Below are positions 40,970 to 58,665 of a DNA stretch of 64,000 nt, one piece after another. The notes under the pieces were generated by a model. It ran no database searches and was not told the origin of the DNA. It saw only the letters and a list, made by a program, of their open reading frames with translations. The stretch comes from an uncultured Methanosarcinales archaeon (GTDB lineage Archaea; Nanobdellota; Nanobdellia; Woesearchaeales; ARS49). Position 1 is the first letter of the stretch, and each line of letters starts with the position of its first letter. Both the position numbers and the translations under genes were made by a program. The DNA lies in NCBI GenBank assembly GCA_964637115.1, contig CAZWVL010000001.1, positions 32,001 to 96,000 of the forward strand. Direction: 5' to 3'.

Positions 40970-41027
40970 TTAGTATTGTATTCTATCAACTTCGTTGACG
41001 TAAAGTAAACCAATGTGGGTTAGTAAG

Positions 41028-41573
41028 ATGGAAAAGAAAGACACCAAAAACGACAAGAAAGAGCCCTCTGAAATAGAGCAACTCAAAGCAGAGTTGGCTA
41101 AAAATCAGGCAGTCATTGCAGACTACACTGAACATTTGAAAAGACTGCAGGCAGAATTTGAAAACTACTGCAAAAGAGTAGAAAAAGAACGCAAAGAATA
41201 CGCAGGAATGGCATCAGAAAAGCTGATTGTCAAGCTCCTGCTAATCATAGATGACTTTGAACGCGCCCTGGTGACGATAAAAAGCGTACCAGAAGAAGCG
41301 CGAAAAGGCATCGAAATGATTTTCAAAAATTTACACAAGATTTTGGATGAAGAACAAGTTCATAAAATACATGCTCTCGGGCAAAAATTTGACCCGTACA
41401 AGCACGAAGTCCTGCTCAAAGTGGAAAGCGAGCAGCCTGAAGACATTGTTGTTGAAGAGCTCCAAAAAGGCTACACAATGAACGGCAAGGTCATCAGGTA
41501 TGCAAAAGTAAAGGTTAGCAGCGGCAAGCAAAGCTTGCCAGTGGGTGCTGGAAAAGCCAGTGGAGGCAAATAA
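41028..41573 (+). CDS. grpE: nucleotide exchange factor GrpE
   Basis: [34 protein letters not shown]...VIRYAKVKV; alternative start 41013. Confidence 0.95.
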
Positions 41574-41575
41574 AC

Positions 41576-43390
41576 ATGTCAAAAGAAAAAATAATCGGAA
41601 TTGACCTAGGAACATCAAACTCTGCAGCATCCGTATTGGAAGCAGGCAGGCCAAAAATAATTCCTTCAGCAGAAGGAGTATCAATGTACGGCAAAGCATT
41701 CCCGTCATTTGTAGCTTTTACAAAAGATGGACAGCTATTAGTAGGAGAGCCGGCAAGACGACAAGCAGTTTCTAACCCGCACGGTACTGTTTACGCTGCA
41801 AAAAGAAAGATGGGCACGAATTTCAAGTACCAGATTCACGGCAAAGAATACACGCCGCAGCAGATTTCTGCATTTATTTTACAGAAAATCAAAAAAGACA
41901 CGGAAGCGTTCTTAGGAGAGCCGGTCAAGAAAGCAGTCATTACAGTGCCAGCATACTTTGATGACAACCAAAGACAGGCAACAAAAGACGCGGGAACAAT
42001 CGCAGGACTGGAAGTTGTTAGAATTGTGAATGAGCCAACAGCAGCCGCGCTCGCATATGGCCTGGACAAAGCAGGCAAACAACAGAAAATTCTCGTCTTT
42101 GACCTTGGTGGAGGCACTTTAGACGTTACCATAATGGACTTCTCAGAAGGAGTGTTTGAAGTTGTTTCAACATCTGGAGACACGCAGCTGGGCGGAACAG
42201 ACATGGACAATTCCGTGATTAATTACATAATCAACGAATTCAAGAAAGAATCAGGCATAGACCTGAACGAAGACGCTGTAGCAATGCAGCGAATTAGGGA
42301 AGCGGCAGAAAAAGCGAAAATTGAACTCAGCACCACGCTTGAGACAGAAATCAACCTGCCATTCATAACAGCGACACAGGCAGGGCCAAAACACTTGCAA
42401 ATGAAATTCACCCGAGCAAAGCTCGATGAACTTGTTGACCCAATAGTCAAGCGTTGCAAGAAATCAGTTGACCAGGCGCACTCAGACTCAAAACTTGGAG
42501 TAAAAGACCTGGACAGAGTTGTTCTTGTTGGAGGACCAACAAGAATGCCAATCGTTCAAAAATACTTGGAACAATGGTTCGGCAATAAGGTAGAAAGAAG
42601 CATAGACCCAATGGAATGTGTAGCTATGGGCGCGGCAATCCAGGCAGGAGTGCTTGCAGGAGAAGTTAAGGATATATTGCTTTTGGACGTAACTCCACTT
42701 AGCCTTGGAATTGAGACACTTGGCGGCGTGTTTACCAAATTAATTGAACGAAACACGACCATTCCAGTAAAGAAAAGCCAGACATTCAGCACTGCAGCAG
42801 ACGATCAGTCAGCTGTTACTATTAGAATCTCACAAGGAGAACGACCAATGTTCGCAGACAACAAGCCCTTGGGACAATTCGACCTTGTTGGAATCCCGCC
42901 TGCACCGCGAGGAATACCGCAGATTGAAGTAGCGTTTGACATAGACGCGAACGGAATCCTGAATGTTTCTGCAAAAGACTTAGGCACTGGAAAAGAACAA
43001 AGCATGAGAATAACCGCTCCAAACAAGCTTGATGCTGCAGAAGTAGAGAAAATGAGAAAACAGGCAGAAGAGTTTGCAGAAGTTGACAAGAAAAAGAAAG
43101 AAGAAATAGAAACAATCAACCACGCAGACACGTTAGTCTACACTGCAGAAAAGCAGATGAAAGACTTTGAAGGCAAAGTAAGCGAAAAGGAAATAAAGGA
43201 CGTCAAGGATAAGGTAGATGAGCTGAAGAAATTGCTTGCAGAGTCACCACGCGACCCGGCAAAAATCAAGAAAAAGCTTGATGAGACAAATCACGCCTTG
43301 CACACAGCTGCAACTGCATTATATCAAAAGGCAGGCGCAAAAGGCAAAGCACGACCGGCAGAAGACGTGGTGGATACGGAAACCGTATAA
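41576..43390 (+). CDS. dnaK: Hsp70 chaperone DnaK
   Basis: [48 protein letters not shown]. Confidence 0.98.
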
Positions 43391-43549
43391 ATGGACCACA
43401 GAATAATCGGTTATGTCGCTTTAGGACTATTGGTAATCTACTTGGCACTCCGCTTTATGGAGCAGTACGCATTCAAAAAAATAGTCCGCGCAGAAGTTGA
43501 GCACGTGCTCAACAGCGACGAGCACAAAGTCAAGGGTCGGTATGGATGA
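43391..43549 (+). CDS. 52-aa single-TM protein between dnaK and dnaJ (not in ORF track)
   Basis: [52 protein letters not shown]; abuts dnaK stop and overlaps dnaJ ATG (ATGA). Confidence 0.75.
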
Positions 43550-44610
43550 GCAAGGACTATTACAAAATTCTTGGTGTAGAAAAAGGGGCGTCAATTGAAG
43601 AAATTAAGTCTGCTTACAAAAAATTAGCCAAGAAGTATCATCCTGACATCAATAAAGAAGCAAGTGCTGGAGATAAGTTCAAGGAAATAAATGAAGCAGC
43701 AGCAGTTCTAGGAGATCCTGACAAAAGGGCACAATACGACCAGTTCGGCACGGCAGGATTTAATAGCCAACAGTTCTCAGGCTTTGATTTCAGAGATTTT
43801 GCTGGCAATATGAACTTTGAAGACATATTTGAAAATTTATTCTCAGGATTTGGATTCAGAGGCGGCAGAAGAGGAAAGCCAGGCAGAGACTTAGTAGCAG
43901 AAGTTGATGTTAAACTTGAAGAAGTAGCCAAAGGCACAACTCGCGAGATAGAAATGCAGCGAATGATACAATGTGAGAAGTGCGACGGCAAAGGCGGCAG
44001 CGATTTTGTTCAATGCAGCACCTGCCAAGGGCAGGGAATGGTAAGACACGCCAGAAGAACACCATTCGGCGTGTTCGCAACAACATCTGCATGCAATAAA
44101 TGCAAAGGAACAGGAGAAATACCTGAAAAAGTCTGCAAAGAATGCGACGGAGAAGGAAGAATCGTAAGCAATGAACCTGTAAAAGTCAAGATTCCAGCAG
44201 GAATACACGACGGAATGCGTTTAAGAGTAGGAGGAGCAGGAGAAGCAGGCGCAGAGGGAGCGCAAGCAGGAGACTTGTACGTTATGGTGCACGTTCTTGA
44301 AGACAAAAGATTTGTCAGAGAAGAAAACGATTTAATTGCAGAACAACCAATAAGCTTTACCACTGCCTGTACGGGCGGCGAAATAATAGTAGAAACACTT
44401 GAAGGCAAGAAAAAAATAGAAATAAAGCCAGGAACACAAAACAATTCAGAAAAAAGATTAGAAGGGGATGGGCTGCCAGACTTAAGAGGCGGACACGGAG
44501 ACTTCGTCATCAAACTATCAGTAGAAGTTCCAAAAAAGATAAGCAAAAAACAGAAAGAATTACTGGAAGAGTTTGAAAAAGAAGGCAAGAAGAAATGGGG
44601 ATTGTTCTAA
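43546..44610 (+). CDS. dnaJ: chaperone DnaJ
   Basis: J domain with HPD, G/F region, four CxxCxGxG repeats. Confidence 0.97.
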
Positions 44611-45414
44611 ATGAAAGTTGAGAGCATTTTCGATAAAGGATCAGGCAAAATAAATGAAGACGCACTAGTGCTGAATGCTCCTGTCTTTGGCGTTTTTGAT
44701 GGCGCCACAAGCCTTGTTTCCTACGACGAAGATGGAAAAACCGGTGCGTATCTAGCGGCACATATCGCGTGTGAAGTATTTACGAATACTAAAAAACCAC
44801 TTCTAGACTTGGCTCACGATGCAAACAAAAAACTACTGGGGGAAATGGAGAGCAAAAACATCGACGTATCCAAAAAAGAAAATCTCTGGGGCACCACCGC
44901 ATCCGTCATCAGACTTGGCAAGAATCAGTTTGAGTATTTGCTGATTGGCGACAGCGCGATACTTATCATCTATACAGACAACTCGTACAAACTTGCCGTA
45001 GACTATAATGACCATGATATGGAACTGCTAACAAAGTGGAAAAAATTTGCAGATATGAAGACAAAAAACATTCTGCACGTTCTTGATTCTGAATGCATTG
45101 AATTGAGAAAAATAAGCAACGTTTCATATGGTGTTATGAATGGCGAGAAAGAAGCCGTTAAATTTCTTCACACTGGTACAGAAAGCCTCCATAATGTCAA
45201 ACACGTACTCCTTTTCACCGACGGGCTACTTATTCCAAAAGAAAATCCGCAGAATGCTCCTCAATTTGATGCTTTGGTGAAGCTATATTTGGAAGGTGGA
45301 CTCGCTAAAGTTAAAAATCAAGTCCGTGAATTGGAGAACAATGACCCGAACTGCTGGAAATACCCACGTTTCAAGCAGCATGACGATATAGCTGCTATTG
45401 CAATTTCGCTGTAA
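44611..45414 (+). CDS. PP2C-family protein phosphatase-like protein
   Basis: NEDA, GVFDGAT, IGDS, LFTDG, HDDIAAIAI; starts immediately after dnaJ stop. Confidence 0.85.
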   Translation: MKVESIFDKGSGKINEDALVLNAPVFGVFDGATSLVSYDEDGKTGAYLAAHIACEVFTNTKKPLLDLAHDANKKLLGEMESKNIDVSKKENLWGTTASVIRLGKNQFEYLLIGDSAILIIYTDNSYKLAVDYNDHDMELLTKWKKFADMKTKNILHVLDSECIELRKISNVSYGVMNGEKEAVKFLHTGTESLHNVKHVLLFTDGLLIPKENPQNAPQFDALVKLYLEGGLAKVKNQVRELENNDPNCWKYPRFKQHDDIAAIAISL

Positions 45415-45432: not shown

Positions 45433-45576
45433 ATGGGAAAAGATGAAATCAGACATTGCAAATGTGGGGCGAAGATCAAGGTGTACACGAGTTCAGAGGC
45501 GCAGAATGAACTTTGTTCCACGTGCCTTGAGCCTTGGGTAAAGCAGATTTTGCAACTAGTTCCAAAAGTAATTTGA
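45433..45576 (+). CDS. 47-aa Cys-rich putative zinc-binding protein (not in ORF track)
   Basis: MGKDEIRHCKCGAKIKVYTSSEAQNELCSTCLEPWVKQILQLVPKVI; SD gaggtga. Confidence 0.65.
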   Translation: MGKDEIRHCKCGAKIKVYTSSEAQNELCSTCLEPWVKQILQLVPKVI

Positions 45577-45604
45577 AAAAAAGCAAAAAGAAGTGAGGGT
45601 TGTT

Positions 45605-46177
45605 TTAAGCACTCGCTAATTGCTCACGCAGTTTCTTGTACGCTCGACGTTCGATGGTCTTCACCGTGCCTTCTGGGAGTTTCAGCATTTTGCCAATGGT
45701 ACGCAAAGTCCGCGGCTCCTTTCCATACAAGCCGTGATGGAACGTGATGACAAACCGTTCATGCAATGGCAACACCTGCACTGATTTGTACAGTTGCGTG
45801 TTAAATGTGCGCTCTTCCTTTTTCACTATCTCATCCAGAGGTGTACTGTTGTATGCAGGATCCTGAGAGTCTGGATCAAATGGACGGAAATGCTGTGCGC
45901 GCCGCCTTTCCATTTTCGCAATATCCATAATTTTGTTGCTAATACACGTGCAGGCATATGTTGAAAAACTTGCTTTTTCCGGATCATGGCGCCTCGCCAC
46001 CTTCCATAACTTAATGGCAGCTTCCTGCGCCGCGTCCTCACGCAGATATGGTTTGCACCGTTTTTTCGCCATAGCATGCGTAAGATTAAGATTTTTAAGA
46101 ACTAATTCTTCATAAACAGCTTCATTGCCTTCCTTCACCTGAGCTGCCGCATCATATTTACCCGCGTCCCCACTCAT
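45605..46177 (-). CDS. sigma-70-family RNA polymerase sigma factor-like protein (regions 2 and 4)
   Basis: GNEAVYEELVLKNLNL, EDAAQEA, HDPEKASFSTYA; region 4 LPLHERFVI...RTLRTIGKMLKLPEGTVKTIERRAYKKLR. Confidence 0.88.
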   Translation of the reverse strand: MSGDAGKYDAAAQVKEGNEAVYEELVLKNLNLTHAMAKKRCKPYLREDAAQEAAIKLWKVARRHDPEKASFSTYACTCISNKIMDIAKMERRRAQHFRPFDPDSQDPAYNSTPLDEIVKKEERTFNTQLYKSVQVLPLHERFVITFHHGLYGKEPRTLRTIGKMLKLPEGTVKTIERRAYKKLREQLASA

Positions 46178-46288
46178 GCAACAATGAAAGAGAAAACTGT
46201 TTAAAAGAATATCTGTGCTTCAGAAACGCTGCCCGACAAAGACTTCAAATCCACAAAGCTTAAAAGGACATTTTAGAGAATTTGAACT

Positions 46289-46939
46289 ATGGTCAACGTA
46301 TACTTGCACGGTCCAAAATGGTTTTTCGGGGTGGATGCCAGTTTGGTTGCATTTGCAGCCCTGATAGCCATTTGCGTTGCATTTGCCTCATTAAGACTAT
46401 ATAGAATGACAAAGGAGCGCAAGTACGCATTCTTCACGGCAAGCTTTGTTCTATTAACATTAGGTTTTCTTTCACGGGCGGTTGCTGACATTCTTCTAGA
46501 AGAAATTTTCATGGGCGTGCCAGCAAACATGGCAGGCCTGGTGTTCTTTTATGGCTACGTTTTGCACATTTTACTTGCACTGACTGCATACTTGTTGCTG
46601 ATAATAATTACTTATAAAATAACCGACAAGAGAATAATTGCACTGTTGTTTTTAGTGCTTGTGCCGAGCATGCTTTTGAGCGGCAGCTACTATCTCAGCT
46701 TTTACGGACTAAGCACAATATTCCTTGCATTCATCGCAGCAGCATATTACCAAAACTACAAGAAAGTATGCTCTGCGGCAAGCTGTCTAGTCTTCATATC
46801 TTTTGTTCTGCTTGCGCTTGCACAAGTACAATTCCTGCTCGAAGCAATAAAAGTCACTTTTTATGTTTCAGGGCATATAACCCAGGCAGTTGGATTCCTG
46901 CTAATCCTGGCTGCGCTGATTAAAACATTACTCAAATGA
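46289..46939 (+). CDS. multi-TM membrane protein (putative sensor)
   Basis: About seven hydrophobic helices; ATGA-coupled to wHTH gene. Confidence 0.75.
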   Translation: MVNVYLHGPKWFFGVDASLVAFAALIAICVAFASLRLYRMTKERKYAFFTASFVLLTLGFLSRAVADILLEEIFMGVPANMAGLVFFYGYVLHILLALTAYLLLIIITYKITDKRIIALLFLVLVPSMLLSGSYYLSFYGLSTIFLAFIAAAYYQNYKKVCSAASCLVFISFVLLALAQVQFLLEAIKVTFYVSGHITQAVGFLLILAALIKTLLK

Positions 46940-47202
46940 AACGCACTAAAATAGACATTATCTACGACATGCTTCGGGCAATCGAAGACAAAGGAGGAAA
47001 GATAATTCCCACCCATTTACTCTACAAGTCAAACCTTTCTCACCAGAGAATGAAACTGTATCTGGAAGAATTAAAACAGAAACAAATGATTGCGGAAACG
47101 CACGTTAAGGATAAACTGTTCTATGAAATAACAGATGAAGGAAGAAAGTTCCTGCAAAACTTCAAACAGATGAAGCAGTTCACGGAAGCGTTTGGACTGT
47201 AG
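46936..47202 (+). CDS. archaeal winged-HTH protein
   Basis: MKRTKIDIIYDML...THLLYKSNLSH...YLEELKQKQMI...YEITDEGRKFL. Confidence 0.85.
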   Translation: MKRTKIDIIYDMLRAIEDKGGKIIPTHLLYKSNLSHQRMKLYLEELKQKQMIAETHVKDKLFYEITDEGRKFLQNFKQMKQFTEAFGL

Positions 47203-47879: not shown

Positions 47880-50800
47880 TTGGAGGTCGGTTTGACGAAA
47901 CTTAACGTTCCATATATACCAAAAAAAGGGGGGCTTGGGGTCCTTGCGCTCTTTGGAATTCTATTTATTACACTGATTTTTGCGTTTTACTTCCGGCCAG
48001 CAGACGAAATTGTTGCAAAACCTACAATTGCTGAACAAACAATAAATGAAGCAGTAACGCAGCTGGCGGACAATGAAGTTGTAATACCAGTGCCAAAAGT
48101 TACAGGCGTTGTTTCACTTGATGACCCGAGACCCAAAATTGATCCACAACTGGTCAAGGAATTAAAAGAACTCAAACGACAGAAAAAACACAAAAGAGTC
48201 ACGGTTCTAGTTGAATTAAAAGATGAACGAGCGCTTGAGGCAATCAGGCAAGCAGGCGGAATAGTACAACAAAATTTTGATATTGGAAATATTGCAGTTG
48301 TAGAAGTGCAATCTGACAATGTAGAAAAAATTTCAGAAGCAACAGGAGTTGAACAAGTAGCATCTGAAAAAGAATACGTTGCATTGTTAGCAGACAGAAT
48401 CCCTGCGTTTTCTATCGATACTGCGGCCTGGGAGAATAATATAACTGGCAAAGGAGTCAAGATTGCGATATTAGATACGGGAGTTGGGCCACACAACAAG
48501 ATTACAGTTGCTGAAGGTGCATCTTTTGTTGACGGAGAAGATACAACAGACCAAAACGGACACGGCACGCACGTGGCAGGCATTGCTTATGGTGTTGCGA
48601 AAGATTCAGCAATTTACAATGCAAAAGTCTTGAACAAAGCAGGAGCAGGAACAACATCGCAAATAATTGCCGGAATTAATTGGGCAGTTGAAAACAATGT
48701 CGACATAATTTCAATGAGTTTCGGAGGAATGTTCACGGAGCTTGACGGGCCACTAGCGTCGGCTGTTAAGGAAGCAATTAACAATGGAGTTATTTTTGTT
48801 GTAGCATCTGGAAACTGCAAAACAGGCTGCGGCGGATTCTACGGAGTAACAACACCAGGAAATGTAAAAGAAGTCATAACCATAGGAGCGGTTGATAACA
48901 ATAATGTTGTTGCGAGCTTTAGTTCAGGAGATACGTTTGGCGAGTACATCAAGCCGGATGTTACTGCTCCCGGAATTGACATTACTTCTACATGGCTGAA
49001 CAACGGCGAGAAAACATCAAGCGGAACGTCAATGAGCACGCCGTTTGTTGCAGGTGTAGCTGCTTTACTGCTGGAGAAAGAACCTGGATTAACGAACGAG
49101 CAGGTGAAGCAGAAGCTGGAAGCGACGGCAACGGATGTAGGGGAAACAGGTAAAGATGTGCTGTATGGACGCGGAATAATCAGCGTCGCCAGCATTCTGT
49201 CCTCAAATTACAGCACCCCAGAAACTCCTCCTCAGATGGATGATACTGATCTTCCACCAAGTGACCTATCCAAATACACTTTGCATGAAATAACAGGAGG
49301 CGCATCACCAGAATACATAACGACTGATTGCCCGGAAAGCCTCGCATACTCCACAGAATTGAATCTATCACGTGAAGAATTTTACATGGCATACGAGTAT
49401 TGCATACTTCAGATCGAGAACAAGGTTCCTGAGTTACCTACTCCAGATCACTATCAAAATATCACAGATACGAGTGAGTATATCAGACAAGCTCCAAGAA
49501 TATATTTTGAAAACTGGCAATCGTACATTCCCGCCGGAGATGTTAACGAAACGCTCATACAAGAGTTAAAGCTAAAAGTCCGAGATCTTCAATCCTTTGA
49601 TTTCAAAACACTGGCAAACCCAGAACCTCTGTTTGATACCCAAAACCACATAGAAGTGGATTATGATGATAATTATAACGTGTTCCTGGGGAGTAATGAT
49701 GATGGAGTAGTGTGGGGAGGTTCAACGCTTTCGGGTCGCTTGCAGGAAGGAAGCAGCAGTCCAACTAATGCTCAAGTAATTTGTTACGATTGGTGTTCTG
49801 AATTTGATTCAGCATGGGATCATTGTTTCTCCACGAGCTCGACGGGCGCAAGCAGATCCGCTGATTTTTCAGCCTGCAGAGCAAGAAACTCAATCATCAA
49901 TTCAGTTTGCTCTGCAAACAATTGCGCGATGGGTCAAGCAGAAGGAGAGCACTCAATAGGCACAGGAAGTTCCGGCTCTCGTGAAAAATGCACAGTACGC
50001 TCATTTTATGTTACTGGTTGTTCCTCCGCATACACCTTAAGTGGCACTTTCAGTGCCACACATTACACGATTTCACCACGACAATTCTGGTGTGCGAATA
50101 GCGACACGGCATATGATGATGTGGGAAGATTTGGGAACAATCTTGAATGGATACTAATGCACACAATCTCCTGTGGAACAGGAAATAAGTGTGACGCAAC
50201 CATAGATGCTGACAATTCAGACTTTGGAACATCGGGAACAAGCGTGCCTAGCTCTCTTTGCAGGATAGACAATGGGCAATCCGGCTGTTCTCAGAACAGC
50301 CAATGCCTTGCAGGATCGCATTGTACGAGTAGCCATTGTTGCCTGAACGGACAAGAATGGGACGGTACGGGGTGCAGCATTCCAGGTACATGCACAGCTG
50401 GATTCAACGGCAATAAGCGATGCAGCGGCAATACACCACAATGGCAATATCAAAATTCTGACTGCTCGACAACCTGGCAAAACCAAGCGGCTTGCTCAAC
50501 AGGAACAACCTGCCAAAATGGAGATTGCGTGTCCACATGTAACAGTAATGGTCTCTGTGAATCTGGAGAAACCAAGCCTGGGTGTCCAAGTGATTGTAAC
50601 AAATCCATAGGTGCTATTTGCACTGCAAACAACCAGTGCAGTACGAACTTCTGCGATGGCAACACAGGCACGTGTCAAGCACCAACTACCTGCACTGATG
50701 GAGATCAAGATGGTTACGGAAATCCAGGAAGCGCAACGTGCTCAGCTGGGTCCACCTTGCTAGATTGCGATGACATTGATCCATTCATAAATCCTGGTGC

Positions 50801-53800
50801 AATAGAGCAATGTAACGGAAAAGATGACAATTGTAACGGTCAAACAGATGAAGGAGGAGTATGCACGCCACAACCGACATGCAATGACCAAGACCAAGAC
50901 GGATACGGAAGCCCGGCAACAGGATGCCCACAAACACTCCCAGATTGCGATGATTCAAAGTCAAATATACATCCAAACGCTCCGGAAATATGCGATGGAT
51001 TTGACAATGACTGCGACGGATCAATTGATGAAGCAAATGTTTGTTGCGGAAACCAACAATGCGACACTGGACTTGGAGAAAATCTGCAAAGCTGTGCGCA
51101 GGACTGCTATTCAAGCTACCAAATTACAGGAATACAATCACCAAGCAGTGTGAATCAAGGACAAACTGTGCAAGTAACAGCCAGCATCAAAAATACGGGC
51201 ACCTGGCCAGGAACAACAAATGTGGAAGGAGGAATAATACCCGACGGCTGGTTGCCATTTAGCAGTTCAAAATGCTGCGGCAACAACAACTTTTTCGGCA
51301 CGCAACAAACAACAATACAGCCAGGGCAAACAAACAACATACAGTTTACGTTAACAGCTCCCGGTGTAACAACAAAAGACAGTTGCGGAGGACAATCGGC
51401 GTGGGATACAAGCCACGAAATAACAATTGGACTCTACGATAATTGCGGAAACACTTACCAGCTAAAATCAAATCAAGATATAAAGATACAAGATAAGCCT
51501 TGCTCAAAGCCAAGCGATTGTGCTCTGCCTGCTGAAAAATGCGTCATCCTAAGCACAACCGGAACTTGCCAGGCAAATACTTGCACGAACCTATGCACAA
51601 GCGGGCAATATGCGTGTAGCGGAGAAACCGTTAGGCACTGTGAAGACACAAACAGTGACGGATGCTACGAATGGAAAGACACGACCGTATGCGCACCTGG
51701 ACAAACATGCGTACCAGGGCAGAGCTCATGTACGGCCGTTCAGATATCGACGGAACCATTTATTGAAGAATCAGCAGGTGGACAAGTCTACAAGCAAATT
51801 GGCGACACTGTTATACTAAACCTGAAATTTTTCCAACAAGAGCAAATCTCATTATATTACGATTCAAACCAATTTGAACTGGACGCGACAACCTGCCAGC
51901 AGACATTTACGATAGACAAAGACACGGCCTGCAAGTTTAAAGTAAAAATAGGACTGCAAGGAGCAGAACTTGGAGTGCGAAAGCAAAATACGATCAAACC
52001 TGCAAAGGCTACAGTTGTTACAATAAACAATCATAATGGAATAATAATAACTAATAAGAAAAAGCTAAAGGAAAGATTTGCAGGGCAGGAAATAAGCGTT
52101 CAAAATCTTCTAAATGACGCATATAACTTTGCTGATGACAACAATCTAATCATCTATGACTTGCAGGAACTGCCAGTCATACATCCATGGGCAAACTTCC
52201 CAACATACCAGGAAACAATAGCAAACCCATTCATGGTGGACAACACTTTAGCTGTAGAAATAGGAAAATTCATACGCAAGAAATGCATTCCTCCACAATG
52301 CCAGAGCACGCTAATACTTGGCGACGATTATGTCGTTCCACACTATAGGCGTTATACACAATTCTTGAATTCATATTTCTTCTCTCCAGCTATTAATACA
52401 CAGCTGCTCTACTCAGAGATACCGTATGTGGAAAGAACCACAAAAGAATTCTCACAACTGGATGAAGTGCTAAGCGATGACAATATTGCAAAGCAAGTGG
52501 TTATCATTAAGCCTGATTCTCTGTCAACAGAAATGCGAACTGCTGTTAACCGGCTAAAGGCAACTCTGCAAGCAAACTTTAGCTCAAGCATAACAGAAAA
52601 AGATTCAAGCAATGTGACTTGCAATGATCCTCAGCTCTTCAACAATCTAAATGGCGTGACGATAATAATACTCGGAACAGAACAAAACAACAGAGCTTAC
52701 AACTGCATGCCATTCGTCGCAGGATTAGAGAATAGGGACTCCGCATTCCTGGAAGTCAACCCGTGGGACGGAGGCGAGTATTCCATTGTCATCAACACAG
52801 AAAATCCCAAAATTATTGAAACCTTCAGCGATGTACTTCGCACAGGAGTATACAAAAAGATAATTGGCAGGCACTGGTATTTCATAGAGATGGCAGTGAC
52901 AGCGGCAAGTTTTGTCGCCATGGCCTGCGGTCCAATCCCCTGTGATTACGTTGTGGACTCTATTGATGCGGGAATACAATGCGGTGTTAAAGAAGATGCC
53001 CTAATGTGCGGTGTCAGCACTGGAGTCGCAATCTTGCCAATTATACCAAGTGGGCCGGTAAAATTGGTAATAAAGGCATTTATCCACTATGTTGGACCTG
53101 CTGGAGAAGCGTTTATACTGAAATATGGGCCTGGAGCTGTTACGTTCTTTGCAGGTATTGGAGGAAAATTCGATGATTTCAAAGCGTATCTTAAGAAAGC
53201 AGTAGATTACTTTGATGTTGAATGGAATGTAATTATCAAAAATTTCAACACACCGGCAGATGAAGAAGCTCTTGCGTTTGGCATAAAGAACATTGAGGCA
53301 GAGGGCAAAACTTTACAAGCATTTGAATCTGCCTTAAGCAAGCAGCAAAAAGCTCGCATCCTTCACTCAATTGGAAAATACTCCTCAGAATTCTTTGCGC
53401 AAAAAGGTTGGAAACAATTTGACAAGCTTGATAAGAGACTGTATAGAGTTGATTTACATACGCCTGATTTCATCAAAAATGCAGGCGGATGGACAAGAAC
53501 GGGCGGAGATGATTACGTCGGTTATGTAAAACAATTGAAAAATGGAAGATTCGTAGCGACAAGCAGATACGTTTCTGGAGCATTCCATGGAGCGAAAAGC
53601 GCTGGAAGCGTTGCTGACGGAGGAACGGCTTACGTATACATAATAGATCCGCGCACGCGTAATTATATCGATGCCCTTGAAACCGTGCCAAATCCTGGAT
53701 CCAATATGTTTATCGAAAGTGAAGTAACTGCTGTCGACAACATAGACTGGAATGATGTTGTAGGAACAGCGGTCTGGAAAGATGGTGATGATCTTCCACG

Positions 53801-53870
53801 GTCTGTATCACCAAATCCATCTTACAAAGGTAGCATGAGCCTGAATAACCTTGGCTGGGAGGTTGACTAA
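47880..53870 (+). CDS. 1996-aa multidomain subtilase with C-terminal ADP-ribosyltransferase toxin domain
   Basis: N-terminal TM, I9-like prodomain, intact S8 triad (ILDTG, HGTHVAG, GTSMSTP), Cys-rich repeats, two DCDD..I.P.A.E.C.G.D..C.G repeats, LILGDDYVVP C25-like segment, pre-toxin-like hydrophobic hairpin, terminal LYRVD..PDFIKNAGG / FVATS / YVYII / ESEV. Confidence 0.88.
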   Translation: MEVGLTKLNVPYIPKKGGLGVLALFGILFITLIFAFYFRPADEIVAKPTIAEQTINEAVTQLADNEVVIPVPKVTGVVSLDDPRPKIDPQLVKELKELKRQKKHKRVTVLVELKDERALEAIRQAGGIVQQNFDIGNIAVVEVQSDNVEKISEATGVEQVASEKEYVALLADRIPAFSIDTAAWENNITGKGVKIAILDTGVGPHNKITVAEGASFVDGEDTTDQNGHGTHVAGIAYGVAKDSAIYNAKVLNKAGAGTTSQIIAGINWAVENNVDIISMSFGGMFTELDGPLASAVKEAINNGVIFVVASGNCKTGCGGFYGVTTPGNVKEVITIGAVDNNNVVASFSSGDTFGEYIKPDVTAPGIDITSTWLNNGEKTSSGTSMSTPFVAGVAALLLEKEPGLTNEQVKQKLEATATDVGETGKDVLYGRGIISVASILSSNYSTPETPPQMDDTDLPPSDLSKYTLHEITGGASPEYITTDCPESLAYSTELNLSREEFYMAYEYCILQIENKVPELPTPDHYQNITDTSEYIRQAPRIYFENWQSYIPAGDVNETLIQELKLKVRDLQSFDFKTLANPEPLFDTQNHIEVDYDDNYNVFLGSNDDGVVWGGSTLSGRLQEGSSSPTNAQVICYDWCSEFDSAWDHCFSTSSTGASRSADFSACRARNSIINSVCSANNCAMGQAEGEHSIGTGSSGSREKCTVRSFYVTGCSSAYTLSGTFSATHYTISPRQFWCANSDTAYDDVGRFGNNLEWILMHTISCGTGNKCDATIDADNSDFGTSGTSVPSSLCRIDNGQSGCSQNSQCLAGSHCTSSHCCLNGQEWDGTGCSIPGTCTAGFNGNKRCSGNTPQWQYQNSDCSTTWQNQAACSTGTTCQNGDCVSTCNSNGLCESGETKPGCPSDCNKSIGAICTANNQCSTNFCDGNTGTCQAPTTCTDGDQDGYGNPGSATCSAGSTLLDCDDIDPFINPGAIEQCNGKDDNCNGQTDEGGVCTPQPTCNDQDQDGYGSPATGCPQTLPDCDDSKSNIHPNAPEICDGFDNDCDGSIDEANVCCGNQQCDTGLGENLQSCAQDCYSSYQITGIQSPSSVNQGQTVQVTASIKNTGTWPGTTNVEGGIIPDGWLPFSSSKCCGNNNFFGTQQTTIQPGQTNNIQFTLTAPGVTTKDSCGGQSAWDTSHEITIGLYDNCGNTYQLKSNQDIKIQDKPCSKPSDCALPAEKCVILSTTGTCQANTCTNLCTSGQYACSGETVRHCEDTNSDGCYEWKDTTVCAPGQTCVPGQSSCTAVQISTEPFIEESAGGQVYKQIGDTVILNLKFFQQEQISLYYDSNQFELDATTCQQTFTIDKDTACKFKVKIGLQGAELGVRKQNTIKPAKATVVTINNHNGIIITNKKKLKERFAGQEISVQNLLNDAYNFADDNNLIIYDLQELPVIHPWANFPTYQETIANPFMVDNTLAVEIGKFIRKKCIPPQCQSTLILGDDYVVPHYRRYTQFLNSYFFSPAINTQLLYSEIPYVERTTKEFSQLDEVLSDDNIAKQVVIIKPDSLSTEMRTAVNRLKATLQANFSSSITEKDSSNVTCNDPQLFNNLNGVTIIILGTEQNNRAYNCMPFVAGLENRDSAFLEVNPWDGGEYSIVINTENPKIIETFSDVLRTGVYKKIIGRHWYFIEMAVTAASFVAMACGPIPCDYVVDSIDAGIQCGVKEDALMCGVSTGVAILPIIPSGPVKLVIKAFIHYVGPAGEAFILKYGPGAVTFFAGIGGKFDDFKAYLKKAVDYFDVEWNVIIKNFNTPADEEALAFGIKNIEAEGKTLQAFESALSKQQKARILHSIGKYSSEFFAQKGWKQFDKLDKRLYRVDLHTPDFIKNAGGWTRTGGDDYVGYVKQLKNGRFVATSRYVSGAFHGAKSAGSVADGGTAYVYIIDPRTRNYIDALETVPNPGSNMFIESEVTAVDNIDWNDVVGTAVWKDGDDLPRSVSPNPSYKGSMSLNNLGWEVD

Positions 53871-54661
53871 TGACTTACATCTCAATAACGAAGTGGACAA
53901 ATAAAGCGCTGGACTTCTTTAAAGAAATCGCTTCACGTGCAAACAAGCACTTCGGTACTCAGTTTGCTGTCCAGCGCGAAATAGAAATCCCTGATAGAGA
54001 CAGATATTCTGTTTTTGAGAAGAATAATTCAAATGTTTCAATTAATGTTGACGTGCTTCCTGCTTACCCGCCGAAGTTTCCTCTATCGTCGGTGAACGTC
54101 AGAATTTCTGTAACAGGAATGGATGAGCGATTCGCGCTTCAAACAATAACCGAATTTTGCAGGAAAATTGCAATTGATTACGGAGACTCCATCGTGTGGG
54201 TGGGAGCCGAAATAAGTATTGAGCCACCTACTTATTACACAATTAATTACACTCGCGACCTTAATGAAAGAGCTTTCTTTGACAGACTTCAAGTTTATCA
54301 TAAAGAACTCATCCATGGCGAGCCGTTTGTAATTTACGCCTACACGTTGCCTCACATCAAAGATGCGATTGAAGTCATCTGGGATAATGCTGAGTTAGAA
54401 GAACTTGGCGCACACAAAAAGATTTCTGTTGGATTCAAGCTGTTTGTAGTCCCCAAAAAACCAGAAATGGGCTGCATTGGATTGGTTGGAAAAGCACTGA
54501 ATCCACCCCATGGACTTATGATTAAAGCTGATACCTATGATGAATTGCAAGCGAAAATTCGCGAGAATCTTGAAAAGCGCGGACTGCGGCTTATTACAGA
54601 CCTCGTAGCGCTTATTGCGGCCAGCAAAAGCGTCAACGAATACGGTGTAGAATGGAAATGA
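53870..54661 (+). CDS. putative cognate immunity protein
   Basis: 263 aa, no signal peptide, TAATG-coupled directly behind the toxin tip; function inferred from position only. Confidence 0.55.
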   Translation: MTYISITKWTNKALDFFKEIASRANKHFGTQFAVQREIEIPDRDRYSVFEKNNSNVSINVDVLPAYPPKFPLSSVNVRISVTGMDERFALQTITEFCRKIAIDYGDSIVWVGAEISIEPPTYYTINYTRDLNERAFFDRLQVYHKELIHGEPFVIYAYTLPHIKDAIEVIWDNAELEELGAHKKISVGFKLFVVPKKPEMGCIGLVGKALNPPHGLMIKADTYDELQAKIRENLEKRGLRLITDLVALIAASKSVNEYGVEWK

Positions 54662-57600
54662 AGAATACGCTTTGGATACTTGCACTGATTTTAATAATTG
54701 CAATTCCAGTAGCTGCCATTCCCTCAGTCTACGAGTCAACATCTGTCTCGCGCATAGTGGGAGATACTCCGCTTGAAATGCAAAATCAGCTGAAGAGAGA
54801 CGACCTTGACCTTGAGTCAGCAGGACTGTTTGACGACTCACTCTCGCCCCTAATACAATCAAACATGTTCAACAGCTTCCCACAAGCATTCCAACAATCG
54901 CCAGATGATTCCTGGCTTCAAAACAGCGGAAAAACCCTGCTAGTCTATAATTCTCAATGGTATACAAACACTCATACGAGCAACAATTACATCACCACCG
55001 GCTCACTGCCAAAATTATCAAGCCCAGAATCACTCGTTATTGCCAATACGCACTATGCGGGAATCGCACTGCCTAAAATAGATGCTTTTGGAGATAGGCT
55101 TTCATCAAAAACAACACTAATAGCGCCTCTCTCACGCAGCAGCACTCGTTTCCTTGAATCTGTTATCTGCAACTTAGGCAGAAACGACGGACTGCCAATA
55201 GGAGAAACATTCAGACTAGCACGAAACAATTATCACTGGAACACTAAAGACGATCAAGATATAATCGGGCTTTCATTACTGTCATACGCTCTTTACGGAA
55301 ACCCGTTCGCAAAAGCAGAAGTTCCTGAATTTGACACATCTGCAAGAGACTATCACTGCGAGAACCGATTAGCAGATTATACTGTAAGTGCATTATCAAG
55401 CAGCCCGATAACCAGCACAACTGATGGATTCCAGCAAACGCACACATATACCATCCAGGACTATGATATCGAACAAACAGGCACATTTGAAATAATAAAT
55501 TCAGCAGACTTCGAACTCGGATACGAGCCAGGAGAATTAGTGCTGCCATACAAATCATTGATATTCCAATTCCCGCATAAAACAATTATCACAGGATACG
55601 ACATAGAGTTTTCCAATCCAGTCGATATTACTGCAAACATACCAGAATGGAATGGCGAAAATTACACCAATAGAATTTGCTCAGTTTCCTCTCAAAATGA
55701 AAGCGCGACAATAAACCAAGTCAACTCTCCAGACTCACAAATCGTAATCGCTAAATTAAACCCAATTGAAATCACAGATTGTGAACAAGGCTCGTTCACT
55801 CTCTACCGGACCGCGTCAATAACACTTAGTTATTATCCATACTCGCCGATCAGAATTACGAGCGTAGAAGCGCCACAAGAATCACTCCCATCAGAATTTA
55901 AAACAATAAAAGTCAACATTGAAAATACGCAGAACACGCCAACAACCGGCACACTTATACTGAAAAACGAGCAAGGAATAGTTAGCGTTAATACGATCAG
56001 CACAACACAATCACAACACAATCTGGAAATTTATACTCCTGCAGAAGAAGGAACATACACTTATACTGTGGAGTTCGTACAAAACGGCGACGTGAAGACC
56101 AGTACAACATTCACAACTGAAGTAAGCATATTGGACGCAAGCCTCGAAATTCCAGATGTCGTCCAGGATGAGGCAGACATAGACGTGCACATTACAAATA
56201 AGAAAACAACAAGCATGCAGAGCGACATAACAGCATATCTAAGCAAAGACGGACAGACAATCAGTCAACAAACGCAAAGCATTCAATTACAACCAGGAGA
56301 AAATACTGCAACATTTACCTTTACAGACTTACAAAAAGACGATCAACAGTACGATGTTCTCGTAGCTATACCTTATGAGAACAAGATAAAGACGCTAACC
56401 GGTAAAATTGTCACAAATCATGATCCATCAATTCTCAATACTAATGTAATCTACCAAGAAGGCGACACGGTCTTGATTACACCAAACGTGGCAGATGCAG
56501 ATGGAGACACAATAATCGCCAGTATAACTGACCAGCCATTTGAATTAGACGGTAGCCATACACTTGATTATGAAAGCAGCGGCGAATACACGTACACTGT
56601 AGAAGCAACAGACGGTACAACAACCGTGCAACAAACATTCGGCGTCCTTGTTCAAAACACTAACAGACCACCAGTCATCAGCACGCCTGAAAATGTCACA
56701 GGAAAAGAAGACCAACAAATCACCATACAAGCATCTGCAACAGATCCTGACAATGAAAACTCTGTTGATAATGATGATAACCAGCTCACAATAACTTACG
56801 ATTATCCATTTGATCAAAATGGAGCATATACGCCAACATATGAAGAATCAGGCGAAATATATGTCACGGTTACAGCAAGCGATGGAGAACTTTCTGATGC
56901 CGTGCTAGTCAAAGTTGTTATTGCCAACGTCAACAGGCCACCACAACTAGACGATCTAGCAAATATCACCATCAATGAAGGCGAATTTGTAGACTTATGG
57001 AAAGGAAGAGACCCAGATAATGAGAATAATGTGACAAACGACGATAACACTCTCTGGATGTACTTTGCAGGCGGACCAGATGGAGGGCCGATAAACCATT
57101 ACGGCAAGTGGCAGACTGATAATGAAGACAGCGGAGTGTATCCGATGACTGTGCAAGTGGAAGATGGAGAACTGAAAGCAGGCAAGCTGATTACGCTGAC
57201 TGTGCAGAACGTGAACAGGCCGCCAATAATAACAGCTCCAGATGTAGTGTATGCTTCAGGTTCTGTTGATTTATCACAATATATTACTGATCCTGATAAT
57301 ACAAACAGCGTGGCGAACGATGACAATACTCTGAGCGTTACTTATGGCTCTCCATTTGATGGAAATGGCAGATGGACGCCAGCACAGCCAGACAGCGCAG
57401 CACAAGTAACAATAACAGTTTCAGACGGAGAATTCAGCGTAACAAAGACGATAATGGTAATGGTAGATGTTGTAGGAGTACAGCCGGTACAAAGCCCGCC
57501 AGTTCCAACAGAAGAGCCAGAAGCGCCGGAACCAACTCAGACTCAAGAAAGTACAACCGATACAAGCGATCCAAGCCCGCCAATACAATCAACGCCGCCT

Positions 57601-58665
57601 GCAAGTACACCTGTATCAGATCCAGCACCTGCGCCGGGCTCAACACCAGTACAGCCAACAAATACTCCGGCAGGACAAACAATATCGTCAAGCACACAAC
57701 AAATTCCTCAGCAGGAAAGTCAGCCACAGCCAACTCCTCAACCAACAAGCCCGCCACCAGCACAACAAACCACTCCAACACCGCAGCAACAGACACAACA
57801 AACCCAACAGCAGCAGACAGCACAGCAACAGCAGACAACACCCACTCCAGGAACACTTGAAATCAAAGTCATTGTGGACAGCAAGGAAGTTGATGACGGC
57901 GATTCAGTAAAAGTAAAACCAGACGATGAATTCAAAGTCAAAGTGGAACTGGAGAATAACGCGGCAGAAGCCAAAGATGTAGATGTTGATGTGAAACTAA
58001 GCGACTTTGACCAGGAAGAAAGTGACAGCATAACTTTGAAAGCAGGCGAGAGCGAGCAATTCAAGTATACATTCGACATACCGAAGCTAACAGATGATGA
58101 CGAGTATCTTCTTGAGATAAGAGTGAATGAAAAAAAATGGGAAATAACGCTGAAAATAGACAAGCCATCACACGAAATTAATGTGAAAGCAAATGTGGAG
58201 CCGGAAATCGTGCTGTGCGAAGAAACTTCAGCCAAACTTAAAGTCAGAATTGAGAATACTGGCAGGGATGACGAAGAAGGAACAATAAAAGTAGAAAGCA
58301 GCACGCTGAAGTTGTTGGACGAATGGCCGTTTGACCTGCCGGAAGGGGAATCACAATTGTTTGAGAAAATTATTAATGCGCTAGTTCCCGGAGAACACGG
58401 TATTTCAGTAAAAGCGCTTTACGGAAGCAAAAACGCAAAAGCAGACGCGAAATTAACGGTAGAATCCTGCAAGAAAGAAGAAACACAAAACACGCAATTG
58501 GCGCCGGAGGAAAGAATGGCATCGGCACTTGCAAACAAGAAATCTGCGACACCAGTTAATGCAGACGCAATGCCGTTTGAAGACACAATCAGCATAATAT
58601 TTGTAGTGCTGAGTAGCATATTTGCAATTACACTACTAATAGCAATACCTAGAATATTCAGGTAG
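54652..58665 (+). CDS. 1337-aa membrane-anchored surface protein with inactive C25-like N-terminal region and cadherin-like repeats
   Basis: Signal peptide; VSRIVGDT and YALYGNPF C25-like motifs without His/Cys; three DPDN.N.V.NDDN.L repeats with NRPP boundaries; Q/P/T linker (about 57480-57850); C-terminal TM. Confidence 0.8.
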   Translation: MEMKNTLWILALILIIAIPVAAIPSVYESTSVSRIVGDTPLEMQNQLKRDDLDLESAGLFDDSLSPLIQSNMFNSFPQAFQQSPDDSWLQNSGKTLLVYNSQWYTNTHTSNNYITTGSLPKLSSPESLVIANTHYAGIALPKIDAFGDRLSSKTTLIAPLSRSSTRFLESVICNLGRNDGLPIGETFRLARNNYHWNTKDDQDIIGLSLLSYALYGNPFAKAEVPEFDTSARDYHCENRLADYTVSALSSSPITSTTDGFQQTHTYTIQDYDIEQTGTFEIINSADFELGYEPGELVLPYKSLIFQFPHKTIITGYDIEFSNPVDITANIPEWNGENYTNRICSVSSQNESATINQVNSPDSQIVIAKLNPIEITDCEQGSFTLYRTASITLSYYPYSPIRITSVEAPQESLPSEFKTIKVNIENTQNTPTTGTLILKNEQGIVSVNTISTTQSQHNLEIYTPAEEGTYTYTVEFVQNGDVKTSTTFTTEVSILDASLEIPDVVQDEADIDVHITNKKTTSMQSDITAYLSKDGQTISQQTQSIQLQPGENTATFTFTDLQKDDQQYDVLVAIPYENKIKTLTGKIVTNHDPSILNTNVIYQEGDTVLITPNVADADGDTIIASITDQPFELDGSHTLDYESSGEYTYTVEATDGTTTVQQTFGVLVQNTNRPPVISTPENVTGKEDQQITIQASATDPDNENSVDNDDNQLTITYDYPFDQNGAYTPTYEESGEIYVTVTASDGELSDAVLVKVVIANVNRPPQLDDLANITINEGEFVDLWKGRDPDNENNVTNDDNTLWMYFAGGPDGGPINHYGKWQTDNEDSGVYPMTVQVEDGELKAGKLITLTVQNVNRPPIITAPDVVYASGSVDLSQYITDPDNTNSVANDDNTLSVTYGSPFDGNGRWTPAQPDSAAQVTITVSDGEFSVTKTIMVMVDVVGVQPVQSPPVPTEEPEAPEPTQTQESTTDTSDPSPPIQSTPPASTPVSDPAPAPGSTPVQPTNTPAGQTISSSTQQIPQQESQPQPTPQPTSPPPAQQTTPTPQQQTQQTQQQQTAQQQQTTPTPGTLEIKVIVDSKEVDDGDSVKVKPDDEFKVKVELENNAAEAKDVDVDVKLSDFDQEESDSITLKAGESEQFKYTFDIPKLTDDDEYLLEIRVNEKKWEITLKIDKPSHEINVKANVEPEIVLCEETSAKLKVRIENTGRDDEEGTIKVESSTLKLLDEWPFDLPEGESQLFEKIINALVPGEHGISVKALYGSKNAKADAKLTVESCKKEETQNTQLAPEERMASALANKKSATPVNADAMPFEDTISIIFVVLSSIFAITLLIAIPRIFR

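Follow-up and report, generated by a model that had tools for sequence, protein, structure and literature searches.

What does a bacterial-type sigma factor do in a cell that initiates transcription by the archaeal route? Cellular life has two great initiation systems, one defined by sigma factors and the other by TBP with TFB, and a sigma long kept by selection in cells that run the archaeal system only is an unexplained exception, itself already published. The question is raised here by an ATG-started open reading frame (ORF) at 45605-46177 (minus strand) of the window, a stretch of 64,000 nucleotides from an uncultured archaeon of the order Woesearchaeales (assembly GCA_964637115.1). The window spans positions 32001-96000 of contig C1 (CAZWVL010000001.1) in a 1.27-Mb, 27-contig genome rated 98% complete. 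The frame encodes a protein of 190 amino acids (aa) composed of sigma2, a linker and sigma4, and the answer favoured here, with due reserve, is that it may act as an accessory, lineage-specific transcription regulator inside the archaeon, beside TBP and TFB.

The protein is confirmed as a genuine bacterial-type member of the sigma-70 family in an archaeal genome. Pfam Sigma70_r2 (PF04542) matches residues 25-92 with 44.4 bits against a cut-off of 24, Sigma70_r4 (PF04545) matches residues 135-185 with 38.7 bits against a cut-off of 24.1, and the NCBIfam superfamily model TIGR02937 spans the protein end to end (81.7 bits, cut-off 42.9). No NCBIfam subfamily or equivalog model reached its cut-off, including those of the extracytoplasmic function (ECF) subfamilies; the SigK model scored 58.9 bits against a cut-off of 252. 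Sigma2, with regions 2.1-2.4, occupies residues ~25-96, followed by a disordered linker (~97-128) that retains a TPLD remnant of region 3.2, and by sigma4, with regions 4.1-4.2, at ~129-187. Domain 3 (Sigma70_r3, PF04539) has no Pfam match in the protein. The AlphaFold2 (AF2) model, built from 12 orthologues, has a mean predicted local distance difference test (pLDDT) value of 80.8 and displays two helical domains with a low-confidence linker at 97-112; when it was compared with the Protein Data Bank (PDB) by Foldseek, all 77 listed matches at E <= 0.001 were sigma factors. The sequence-only reading of this locus had recognised regions 2.1-2.4 and a region 4.2 helix-turn-helix (HTH) of a sigma-70-like factor in an archaeal genome, and Pfam, TIGR02937 and the AF2/Foldseek comparison all agree with it. 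No signal peptide, transmembrane segment or secretion partner was found in or near the protein, whose N-terminus reads MSGD followed by polar residues. A reading as a defence system was discarded, PADLOC having returned only a weak MzaA match (22.6 bits) over the generic sigma2 region.

Within the family, the profile of the 12 orthologues ranks cyanobacterial SigA, RpoS, SigA/HrdB, RpoD, FliA and RpoH among solved chains, and no solved ECF sigma occurs in the best 60 of the 71 solved chains matching at E <= 1e-5. The protein retains a region 2.1 of the SNLRLV..AKK type, the D..QE..I of region 2.2, the FSTYA of region 2.3 and the core of region 4.1. From these features we read it as derived from group 1/3 sigmas with loss of domain 3, and not as a typical ECF sigma.

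The host is equipped for archaeal initiation. The genome encodes TBP, TFB and TFE-alpha, together with a single Rpb1-type gene for the polymerase large subunit, whose Rpo1N has 909 aa; no bacterial core polymerase subunit, including the C-terminal domain of alpha, was found in it. The bin has three sigma-like genes, all of them on contig C1, which was therefore checked specifically. It carries genes for an L10e-type ribosomal protein, an S-layer-like protein, HVO_0163-type HTH proteins, a family-B DNA polymerase and HTH_45 proteins, and its tetranucleotide make-up falls inside the range of the other large contigs. A TATA hexamer at -32 to -27 precedes 22% of the crude gene starts on C1, compared with 15-39% on the other large contigs. 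The identical 190-aa protein with identical flanks occurs on contigs independently assembled from three other sequencing runs, which come from freshwater sediment, two contigs of other samples, 75 kb and 137 kb long, carry orthologues with unchanged gene order, and a closed one-contig genome of the order (G040) also bears a sigma domain. Chimerism and mis-binning, the first of which the sequence-only reading had itself raised as a danger, are excluded.

The expression signals of the gene are archaeal. A box combining a B recognition element (BRE) with a TATA box, GATATTCTTTTAAA, lies at 46200-46213 on the minus strand; its reverse-strand cttttaaa (46200-46207) lies 22 nt before the ATG, and the TATA hexamer TTTTAA starts at -29. 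The box exceeds what chance would give: over 1014 crude gene starts of the whole genome, the starts of TATA-like hexamers form a sharp maximum 31 to 28 nt before the ATG (-31 to -28), as is characteristic of archaeal promoters for leaderless mRNAs. A hexamer starting at -29 implies that the mRNA is leaderless or nearly so, and transcription would begin ~22-24 nt past the TATA box. ATATCTTTTTATAG or a near copy of it stands at the same distance from the ATG in six orthologous sigma loci. Both the spacing and the domestication proposed from the sequence alone are borne out by this conserved native-type promoter, whose coordinates were exact. Past the stop codon, after 16 nt, runs an oligo-T tract, TTTTTGCTTTTTTT (45576-45589, minus strand). 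Oligo-T terminates archaeal transcription, and the tract is likely an archaeal-type terminator that would serve this gene, which for that reason looks monocistronic. Over 20 kb around the gene, neither sigma70-type promoter-like sites (41 compared with 35.3 +/- 5.7 in shuffles) nor intrinsic-terminator-like sites (19 compared with 19.9 +/- 4.6) are in excess. With an archaeal box at genome-typical spacing, an oligo-T tract and no excess of bacterial signals, the gene appears fully wired into archaeal expression. Three orthologous loci have a TTGACA-like box ~18 nt before the TATA box, which was considered as a -35 element and ruled out; it falls where the divergent orf191 promoter has its BRE, and the window itself lacks it.

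Sigma-70 genes as a kind are not new in this archaeal group. They are particularly prevalent in Woesearchaeota (family fam00359; Castelle et al. 2021, Front Microbiol, PMC8204110), and that survey of DPANN archaea found no anti-sigma factors, noted TBP, TFB and TFE alongside, and left the mechanism unknown. Sigma70_r2 was detected in 116 of 301 sampled genomes of the order, in 95 of 241 high-quality genomes and in 101 of 209 genera, tallies that take in four unpublished genomes (G193, G129, G148, G299), on which nothing said here about sequences depends. Such a gene is thus no novelty in itself; what is new is the subfamily-level detail and the asymmetry between two sigmas of one genome, described below. 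The subfamily itself is small, with 12 close homologues among 5.8 billion proteins; of 1.84 billion representatives, only 7 match at E <= 1e-30. The nearest non-orthologue, P0016 (37% identical), occupies the same genomic slot of a related archaeon and is followed there by a second sigma gene. No close bacterial counterpart was found among the 1.84 billion representatives, and a pattern scan of genome contigs, made in search of a bacterial donor, turned up only two close archaeal relatives. The top non-orthologous match, P0015, is a 1692-aa multi-repeat protein with only 25% identity. The subfamily consequently looks like an old archaeal resident and not a fresh import.

Selection has kept the gene. 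The reading frame is intact in all 12 orthologues, at 48-64% identity, which disposes of the frameshifted singleton considered earlier. Synonymous sites are saturated, the proportion of synonymous differences (pS) being 0.56-0.85 against 0.16-0.36 for nonsynonymous ones (pN), and the ratio of the corresponding substitution rates (dN/dS) is 0.11-0.33 where dS is estimable; these values indicate purifying selection. In three syntenic loci the sigma is 55%, 55% and 37% identical, compared with 91-94% for DnaK, 78-87% for DnaJ and 78-97% for HTH_45, so that the sigma evolves far faster than its flanks, yet under purifying selection. Invariant among the 12 orthologues are R46, D48-A53, L57, F71-T73, A75 and the sigma4 core.

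An alignment of the orthologues with Escherichia coli RpoD and RpoH brings out which residues are kept. In sigma32, D77, E81, I84 and M87 are reported to contact the beta-prime clamp helices (PMC10216364), and their counterparts in the 190-aa sigma are D48, E52, I55 and W58, the first three identical. D48, Q51, E52 and I55 equal D403, Q406, E407 and I410 of sigma70; D48, Q51 and E52 are invariant, and I55 is present in 11 of the 12 orthologues. Six residues of sigma4 contact the beta flap-tip helix, of which three leucines are identical and invariant. The DNA-reading positions are replaced. Among the residues melting and reading the -10 element, W433, W434, Q437 and T440 become T77, C78, N81 and M84, while F427, T429 and Y430 are kept; among those reading the -35 element, R584, E585, R586, R588 and Q589 become E, G, T, K and T and vary among orthologues. 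Many bona fide group 3/4 sigmas lack the tryptophan pair, and its loss therefore does not exclude sigma-70 membership.

This asymmetry, with polymerase-docking residues frozen and DNA-reading residues free, is reversed in the larger sigma of the same genome, a protein of 719 aa encoded outside the window (C1:111470-113629, plus strand; L003:106-2265). It possesses all canonical -10 and -35 reading residues, in YGYWWMRQSITR and TRERIRQIEAKA, and its docking residues are altered (D403N, Q406S, E407L; the fourth is I). Since the larger protein tolerates such substitutions, the fold does not depend on the docking residues, and that they stay constant in the 190-aa subfamily speaks for an interface that has been conserved. 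The 719-aa protein begins with a 460-aa region lacking any Pfam match over cut-off, continues with sigma2-sigma3-sigma4 and has a weak PADLOC match to the MzaA C-terminus (57 bits). Across the order, 80 evenly sampled sigma2 domains, a sample that leaves out unpublished genomes, hold D403 in 69, Q406 in 51, E407 in 50, Y430 in 59, W433 in 36 and W434 in 46. These frequencies are somewhat lower than those in 137 database-wide representatives of sigma2, whose taxonomy is not known (D403 0.92, Q406 0.78, E407 0.82, Y430 0.93, W433 0.50, W434 0.69). Judged by its residues, the order-wide sigma family keeps much of the canonical sigma signature inside archaea.

The explanation favoured here starts from a long-resident gene of DPANN (Woesearchaeota-type) archaea, encoding a minimal sigma that would descend from bacterial group 1/3-type sigmas after loss of domain 3. 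The archaeal machinery would transcribe the gene from its own BRE/TATA promoter, yielding an mRNA that is probably leaderless and monocistronic and that would end at the oligo-T tract. The protein would supplement TBP and TFB, not replace them. Its invariant surface of regions 2.1-2.3 may hold a protein partner, for which the RNA polymerase clamp coiled-coil is the obvious candidate and another protein is possible, and the sigma4 helix-turn-helix would contact DNA with a specificity that differs between lineages. A repurposed DNA-binding regulator, one of the roles suggested by the sequence-only reading, is plausible on these grounds.

Several points weigh against such a regulator. Free sigmas usually bind DNA poorly without core polymerase, and with the DNA-reading residues replaced or variable, no DNA target can be proposed. 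The gene is dispensable: a search of 14 other genomes of the genus gave orthologues in 4, and relatives exist in which the corresponding gap holds no sigma. The remaining points concern the clamp. No gap is needed to align the clamp helices of E. coli beta-prime (about residues 260-310) with the coiled-coil of Rpo1N (about 280-335), and the beta-prime residues reported at the sigma2 interface, R275, R278, R281, L282, L285, I291, E295 and M298 (PMC10216364), correspond in that order to I299, R302, E305, N306, A309, I315, L319 and L322 of Rpo1N. Only two of these eight are identical (R278 and I291) and two more are conservative, whereas two arginines are lost, the charge is reversed at R281, which becomes E, and R275 and E295 become I and L. 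The Rpo1N coiled-coil is a standard archaeal sequence, near-identical to that in Sulfolobus and Thermococcus structures and likewise very close to that of Methanocaldococcus, and it is nearly invariant in 24 genomes of the order, with or without a sigma; any adaptation would therefore have to be on the sigma side.

Complex prediction was performed on the sigma and residues 50-430 of Rpo1N, both entered as alignments, and gave a score of 0.35, compared with 0.00 for the best of three controls. At least 70% of contacts recur between runs, and the pLDDT of the partners is at least 72. Among 80 solved complexes, 58 reach the mark passed here, as do 2 among 110 mismatched pairs, and at the mark, scores of 0.60 or below came from only 7 of the 80 solved complexes and from both passing mismatches. 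Since structures of sigma/beta-prime complexes have been solved, the predictor may have passed the pair by remembering them. For the archaeal-clamp arm of the structure prediction that the sequence-only reading had envisaged, the outcome is a weak hint of docking, and no more.

The neighbourhood is a small variable island between two conserved operons. One border is the grpE-dnaK-(52 aa)-dnaJ operon (41013-44610, plus strand), which is convergent with the sigma gene; the other is a divergent core operon (46289-47202, plus strand) encoding a 216-aa polytopic membrane protein and an 88-aa HTH_45 winged-helix protein. Of 41 family genomes, a set including three unpublished ones (G336, G344, G023), 40 contain the membrane-protein gene, which counts as core. 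Inside the island, a PP2C phosphatase gene (44611-45414, plus strand) follows dnaJ directly (TAA ATG) and is present only here and in one same-genus relative (G005). Differing between lineages, the contents of the island comprise one or two sigma genes, the PP2C gene and a 191-202-aa protein of no known family. In several relatives (G006, G172, G330) dnaJ and the membrane gene are direct neighbours, 230-370 bp apart, with no sigma between them, and the sigma is hence an insertion into this gap and not part of a transferred or co-regulated block. Since the content of the island varies and its borders are core genes, the neighbours give no pointer to the function of the sigma.

Three links to neighbouring genes were rejected on this basis. 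A sigma32-like connection with the dnaK operon is contradicted by the same-family genomes G006, G172 and G330, where dnaJ adjoins the membrane gene without a sigma. The membrane protein is not taken as an anti-sigma factor, being core in the family with a promoter that is alike whether or not a sigma is present. A partner-switching module of PP2C and sigma was dropped because PP2C lies in the island in two lineages only and no STAS protein or anti-sigma kinase accompanies it; neither an HATPase_c_2 anti-sigma kinase nor a STAS protein was found in the genome, in keeping with the lack of anti-sigma factors in the survey of Castelle et al. 2021. No anti-sigma gene shares an operon with the 190-aa sigma, which lies alone between the divergent and convergent operons.

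Some features of these surroundings merit description in their own right. The promoter box of the membrane-protein/HTH_45 operon, ATCCAYAAAGCTTAAAAG (46255-46267, plus strand), lies ~23 nt before its ATG and is nearly invariant across genera; compared at this position with 12 related loci, it stands out from the flanking intergenic DNA, which is much less conserved. The 191-202-aa family (L021:9338-9913, L024:6506-7114 and L054:2212-2814, all minus strand) has no Pfam or PADLOC match and occurs in the dnaJ/membrane-gene island on either side of the sigma, as well as in the sigma-less G009, and is absent from the island of the window. Between dnaK and dnaJ, a 52-aa ORF (43391-43549, plus strand), called as a gene and predicted to form one hydrophobic helix, is conserved at 48-79% identity in all 5 of the related loci examined that span the dnaK operon, and seems to be a small component of the archaeal DnaK operon not described before. 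After the HTH_45 gene comes a giant-protein operon (47880-58665, plus strand) encoding proteins of 1996 aa (subtilisin, Cys-rich repeats), 263 aa and 1337 aa, syntenic in relatives.

Four other functional accounts of the gene were weighed against the accessory regulator. The protein could be a pure protein-binding module with a sigma-like fold and no role at polymerase or DNA, as in the sigma-like domain of PhyR. In its favour, the best-conserved parts are the surfaces through which sigma2 and sigma4 contact proteins, and the DNA-reading positions vary. Its partner, however, is hard to place: the genome yields no anti-sigma-like candidate of the HATPase_c_2 or STAS type, no gene is co-transcribed with the sigma, and the island neighbours, PP2C and the orf191-202 family, are inconsistently present. 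On balance a role of this kind is unlikely.

A true sigma would dock through region 2.2 on the Rpo1N clamp coiled-coil and direct or melt specific promoters, opening a hybrid initiation route in competition with TFE and Spt5. The invariant docking residues, the gapless alignment of the two sets of clamp helices, the weak pass in complex prediction and the order-wide retention of D403, Q406, E407 and W434 all speak for it. They are offset by the small share of sigma-contact residues in Rpo1N and the charge reversal at R281, by the loss of the tryptophan pair and of the -35-reading residues in this protein, by the lack of any excess of sigma70-type promoter-like sites around the gene, and by the chance that the prediction recalls solved structures. 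To our knowledge, the archaeal polymerase also has no flap-tip helix that could place sigma4. The kept docking residues and the complex prediction raise the estimate slightly and the poor clamp match lowers it, leaving full sigma function improbable.

Just as improbable is a cross-domain effector, passed to a bacterial host or prey to bind the bacterial core polymerase in the manner of phage sigmas and to redirect or block transcription. Such a protein would explain why beta-prime-docking residues are invariant although most of the residues matching them are missing from the archaeal clamp; a fast-evolving, accessory island gene would fit an arms race, and genes for giant surface and toxin-like proteins lie at a distance of 2 kb. 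That adjacency, however, is ordinary conserved synteny, the protein has none of the export features sought, nothing speaks directly for an effector or for the decoy that the sequence-only reading named beside it, and we know of no bacterial host for these archaea.

A drifting passenger, that is, a functionless gene of bacterial origin heading for loss, would account for the patchy distribution within the genus and for the low identity of the sigma beside DnaK in the same loci. It is very unlikely in view of the intact frames, a pN far below pS, the invariant blocks, the conserved promoter and the absence of a close bacterial source among the representatives searched. A bacterial fragment misjoined to the archaeal bin has practically no probability left, given the same protein and flanks on three independently assembled contigs, the synteny on two more, the archaeal genes, promoter spacing and bin-typical tetranucleotides of C1, and the sigma domain of the closed genome G040.

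Further sigma-related genes were observed along the way. A third sigma gene of the genome, outside the window (C1:20250-20822, minus strand; L002:1201-1773), encodes an ECF-like protein, also of 190 aa (Sigma70_r4_2, weak PhyR_sigma2), that is unrelated in sequence to the sigma studied here (26% over 72 aa). Upstream of it, in the same direction, stands a gene for a 401-465-aa protein of no Pfam family with a weak match to the PADLOC candidate HEC-07 (E 1e-6). FecR proteins regulate ECF sigmas in bacteria, and a 302-aa FecR-domain protein (C1:28520-29428, plus strand; L026:18521-19429; PF04773, 39.4 bits, cut-off 24) is encoded ~8 kb from the ECF-like sigma. P0015 (L073:10001-15079), P0017, P0020, P0022, P0025 and P0028 are proteins of 650-1700 aa with 7-11 repeated sigma4-like helix-turn-helix units; the contig of P0015 carries a bacterial mur/ftsW cell-wall cluster, an integrase and an ADP-ribosyltransferase toxin gene. 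Tandem sigma4 arrays of this type appear undescribed.

The locus adds a compact and tractable member to the published exception: 190 aa, apparently monocistronic, with a defined promoter. The asymmetry between docking and DNA-reading residues makes binding experiments easy to design. If docking on the archaeal clamp proved true, a bacterial-type sigma would work with a eukaryote-like polymerase, forming a natural hybrid of the two initiation systems in which the sigma would be an alternative factor for promoter specificity or melting, or a competitor of TFE and Spt5.

Comparison with known systems places the protein more closely. Bacterial group 1-3 sigmas (cyanobacterial SigA, RpoS, RpoH and the sporulation sigmas SigK/SigE) provide its best PDB and NCBIfam profile matches and share with it the SNLRLV..AKK, D..QE..I and FSTYA motifs, an LPLD-type remnant of region 3.2 and the L..RE..V...YGL core of region 4.1. 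Unlike them, it lacks domain 3 and regions 1.1/1.2, its host has no bacterial core polymerase, W433/W434 have become T/C, and the -35-reading R584, E585, R588 and Q589 have become E, G, K and T. With ECF (group 4) sigmas it has in common the two-domain sigma2-sigma4 architecture of ~190 aa without sigma3; it is nearer to groups 1-3 in sequence, no anti-sigma gene is co-transcribed beside it, and its promoter is a TATA box with no recognisable ECF-type autoregulatory promoter. The likeness to the sigma-like domain of PhyR lies in a sigma-70 fold used, or here possibly used, to capture a protein and not for initiation, but the 190-aa sigma has no receiver domain or NepR-like partner, and the weak PhyR_sigma2 match in the genome belongs only to the other small sigma.

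TFE and the NGN domain of Spt5 bind the clamp coiled-coil. Should sigma2 touch Rpo1N, the site would be the same and the analogy functional; neither protein is related to the 190-aa sigma in sequence or fold, and the binding of the sigma at this site is putative. The closest parallel is with the DPANN sigmas of Castelle et al. 2021 (PMC8204110), where again a sigma-70-family gene lies on a genuine DPANN contig with TBP, TFB and TFE alongside and no anti-sigma factor found. That survey gives no residue- or locus-level description, and the present locus adds to it a small subfamily of 12 close homologues, its position in an island, its rate of change relative to its flanks, its archaeal promoter and its pattern of docking and DNA-reading residues.

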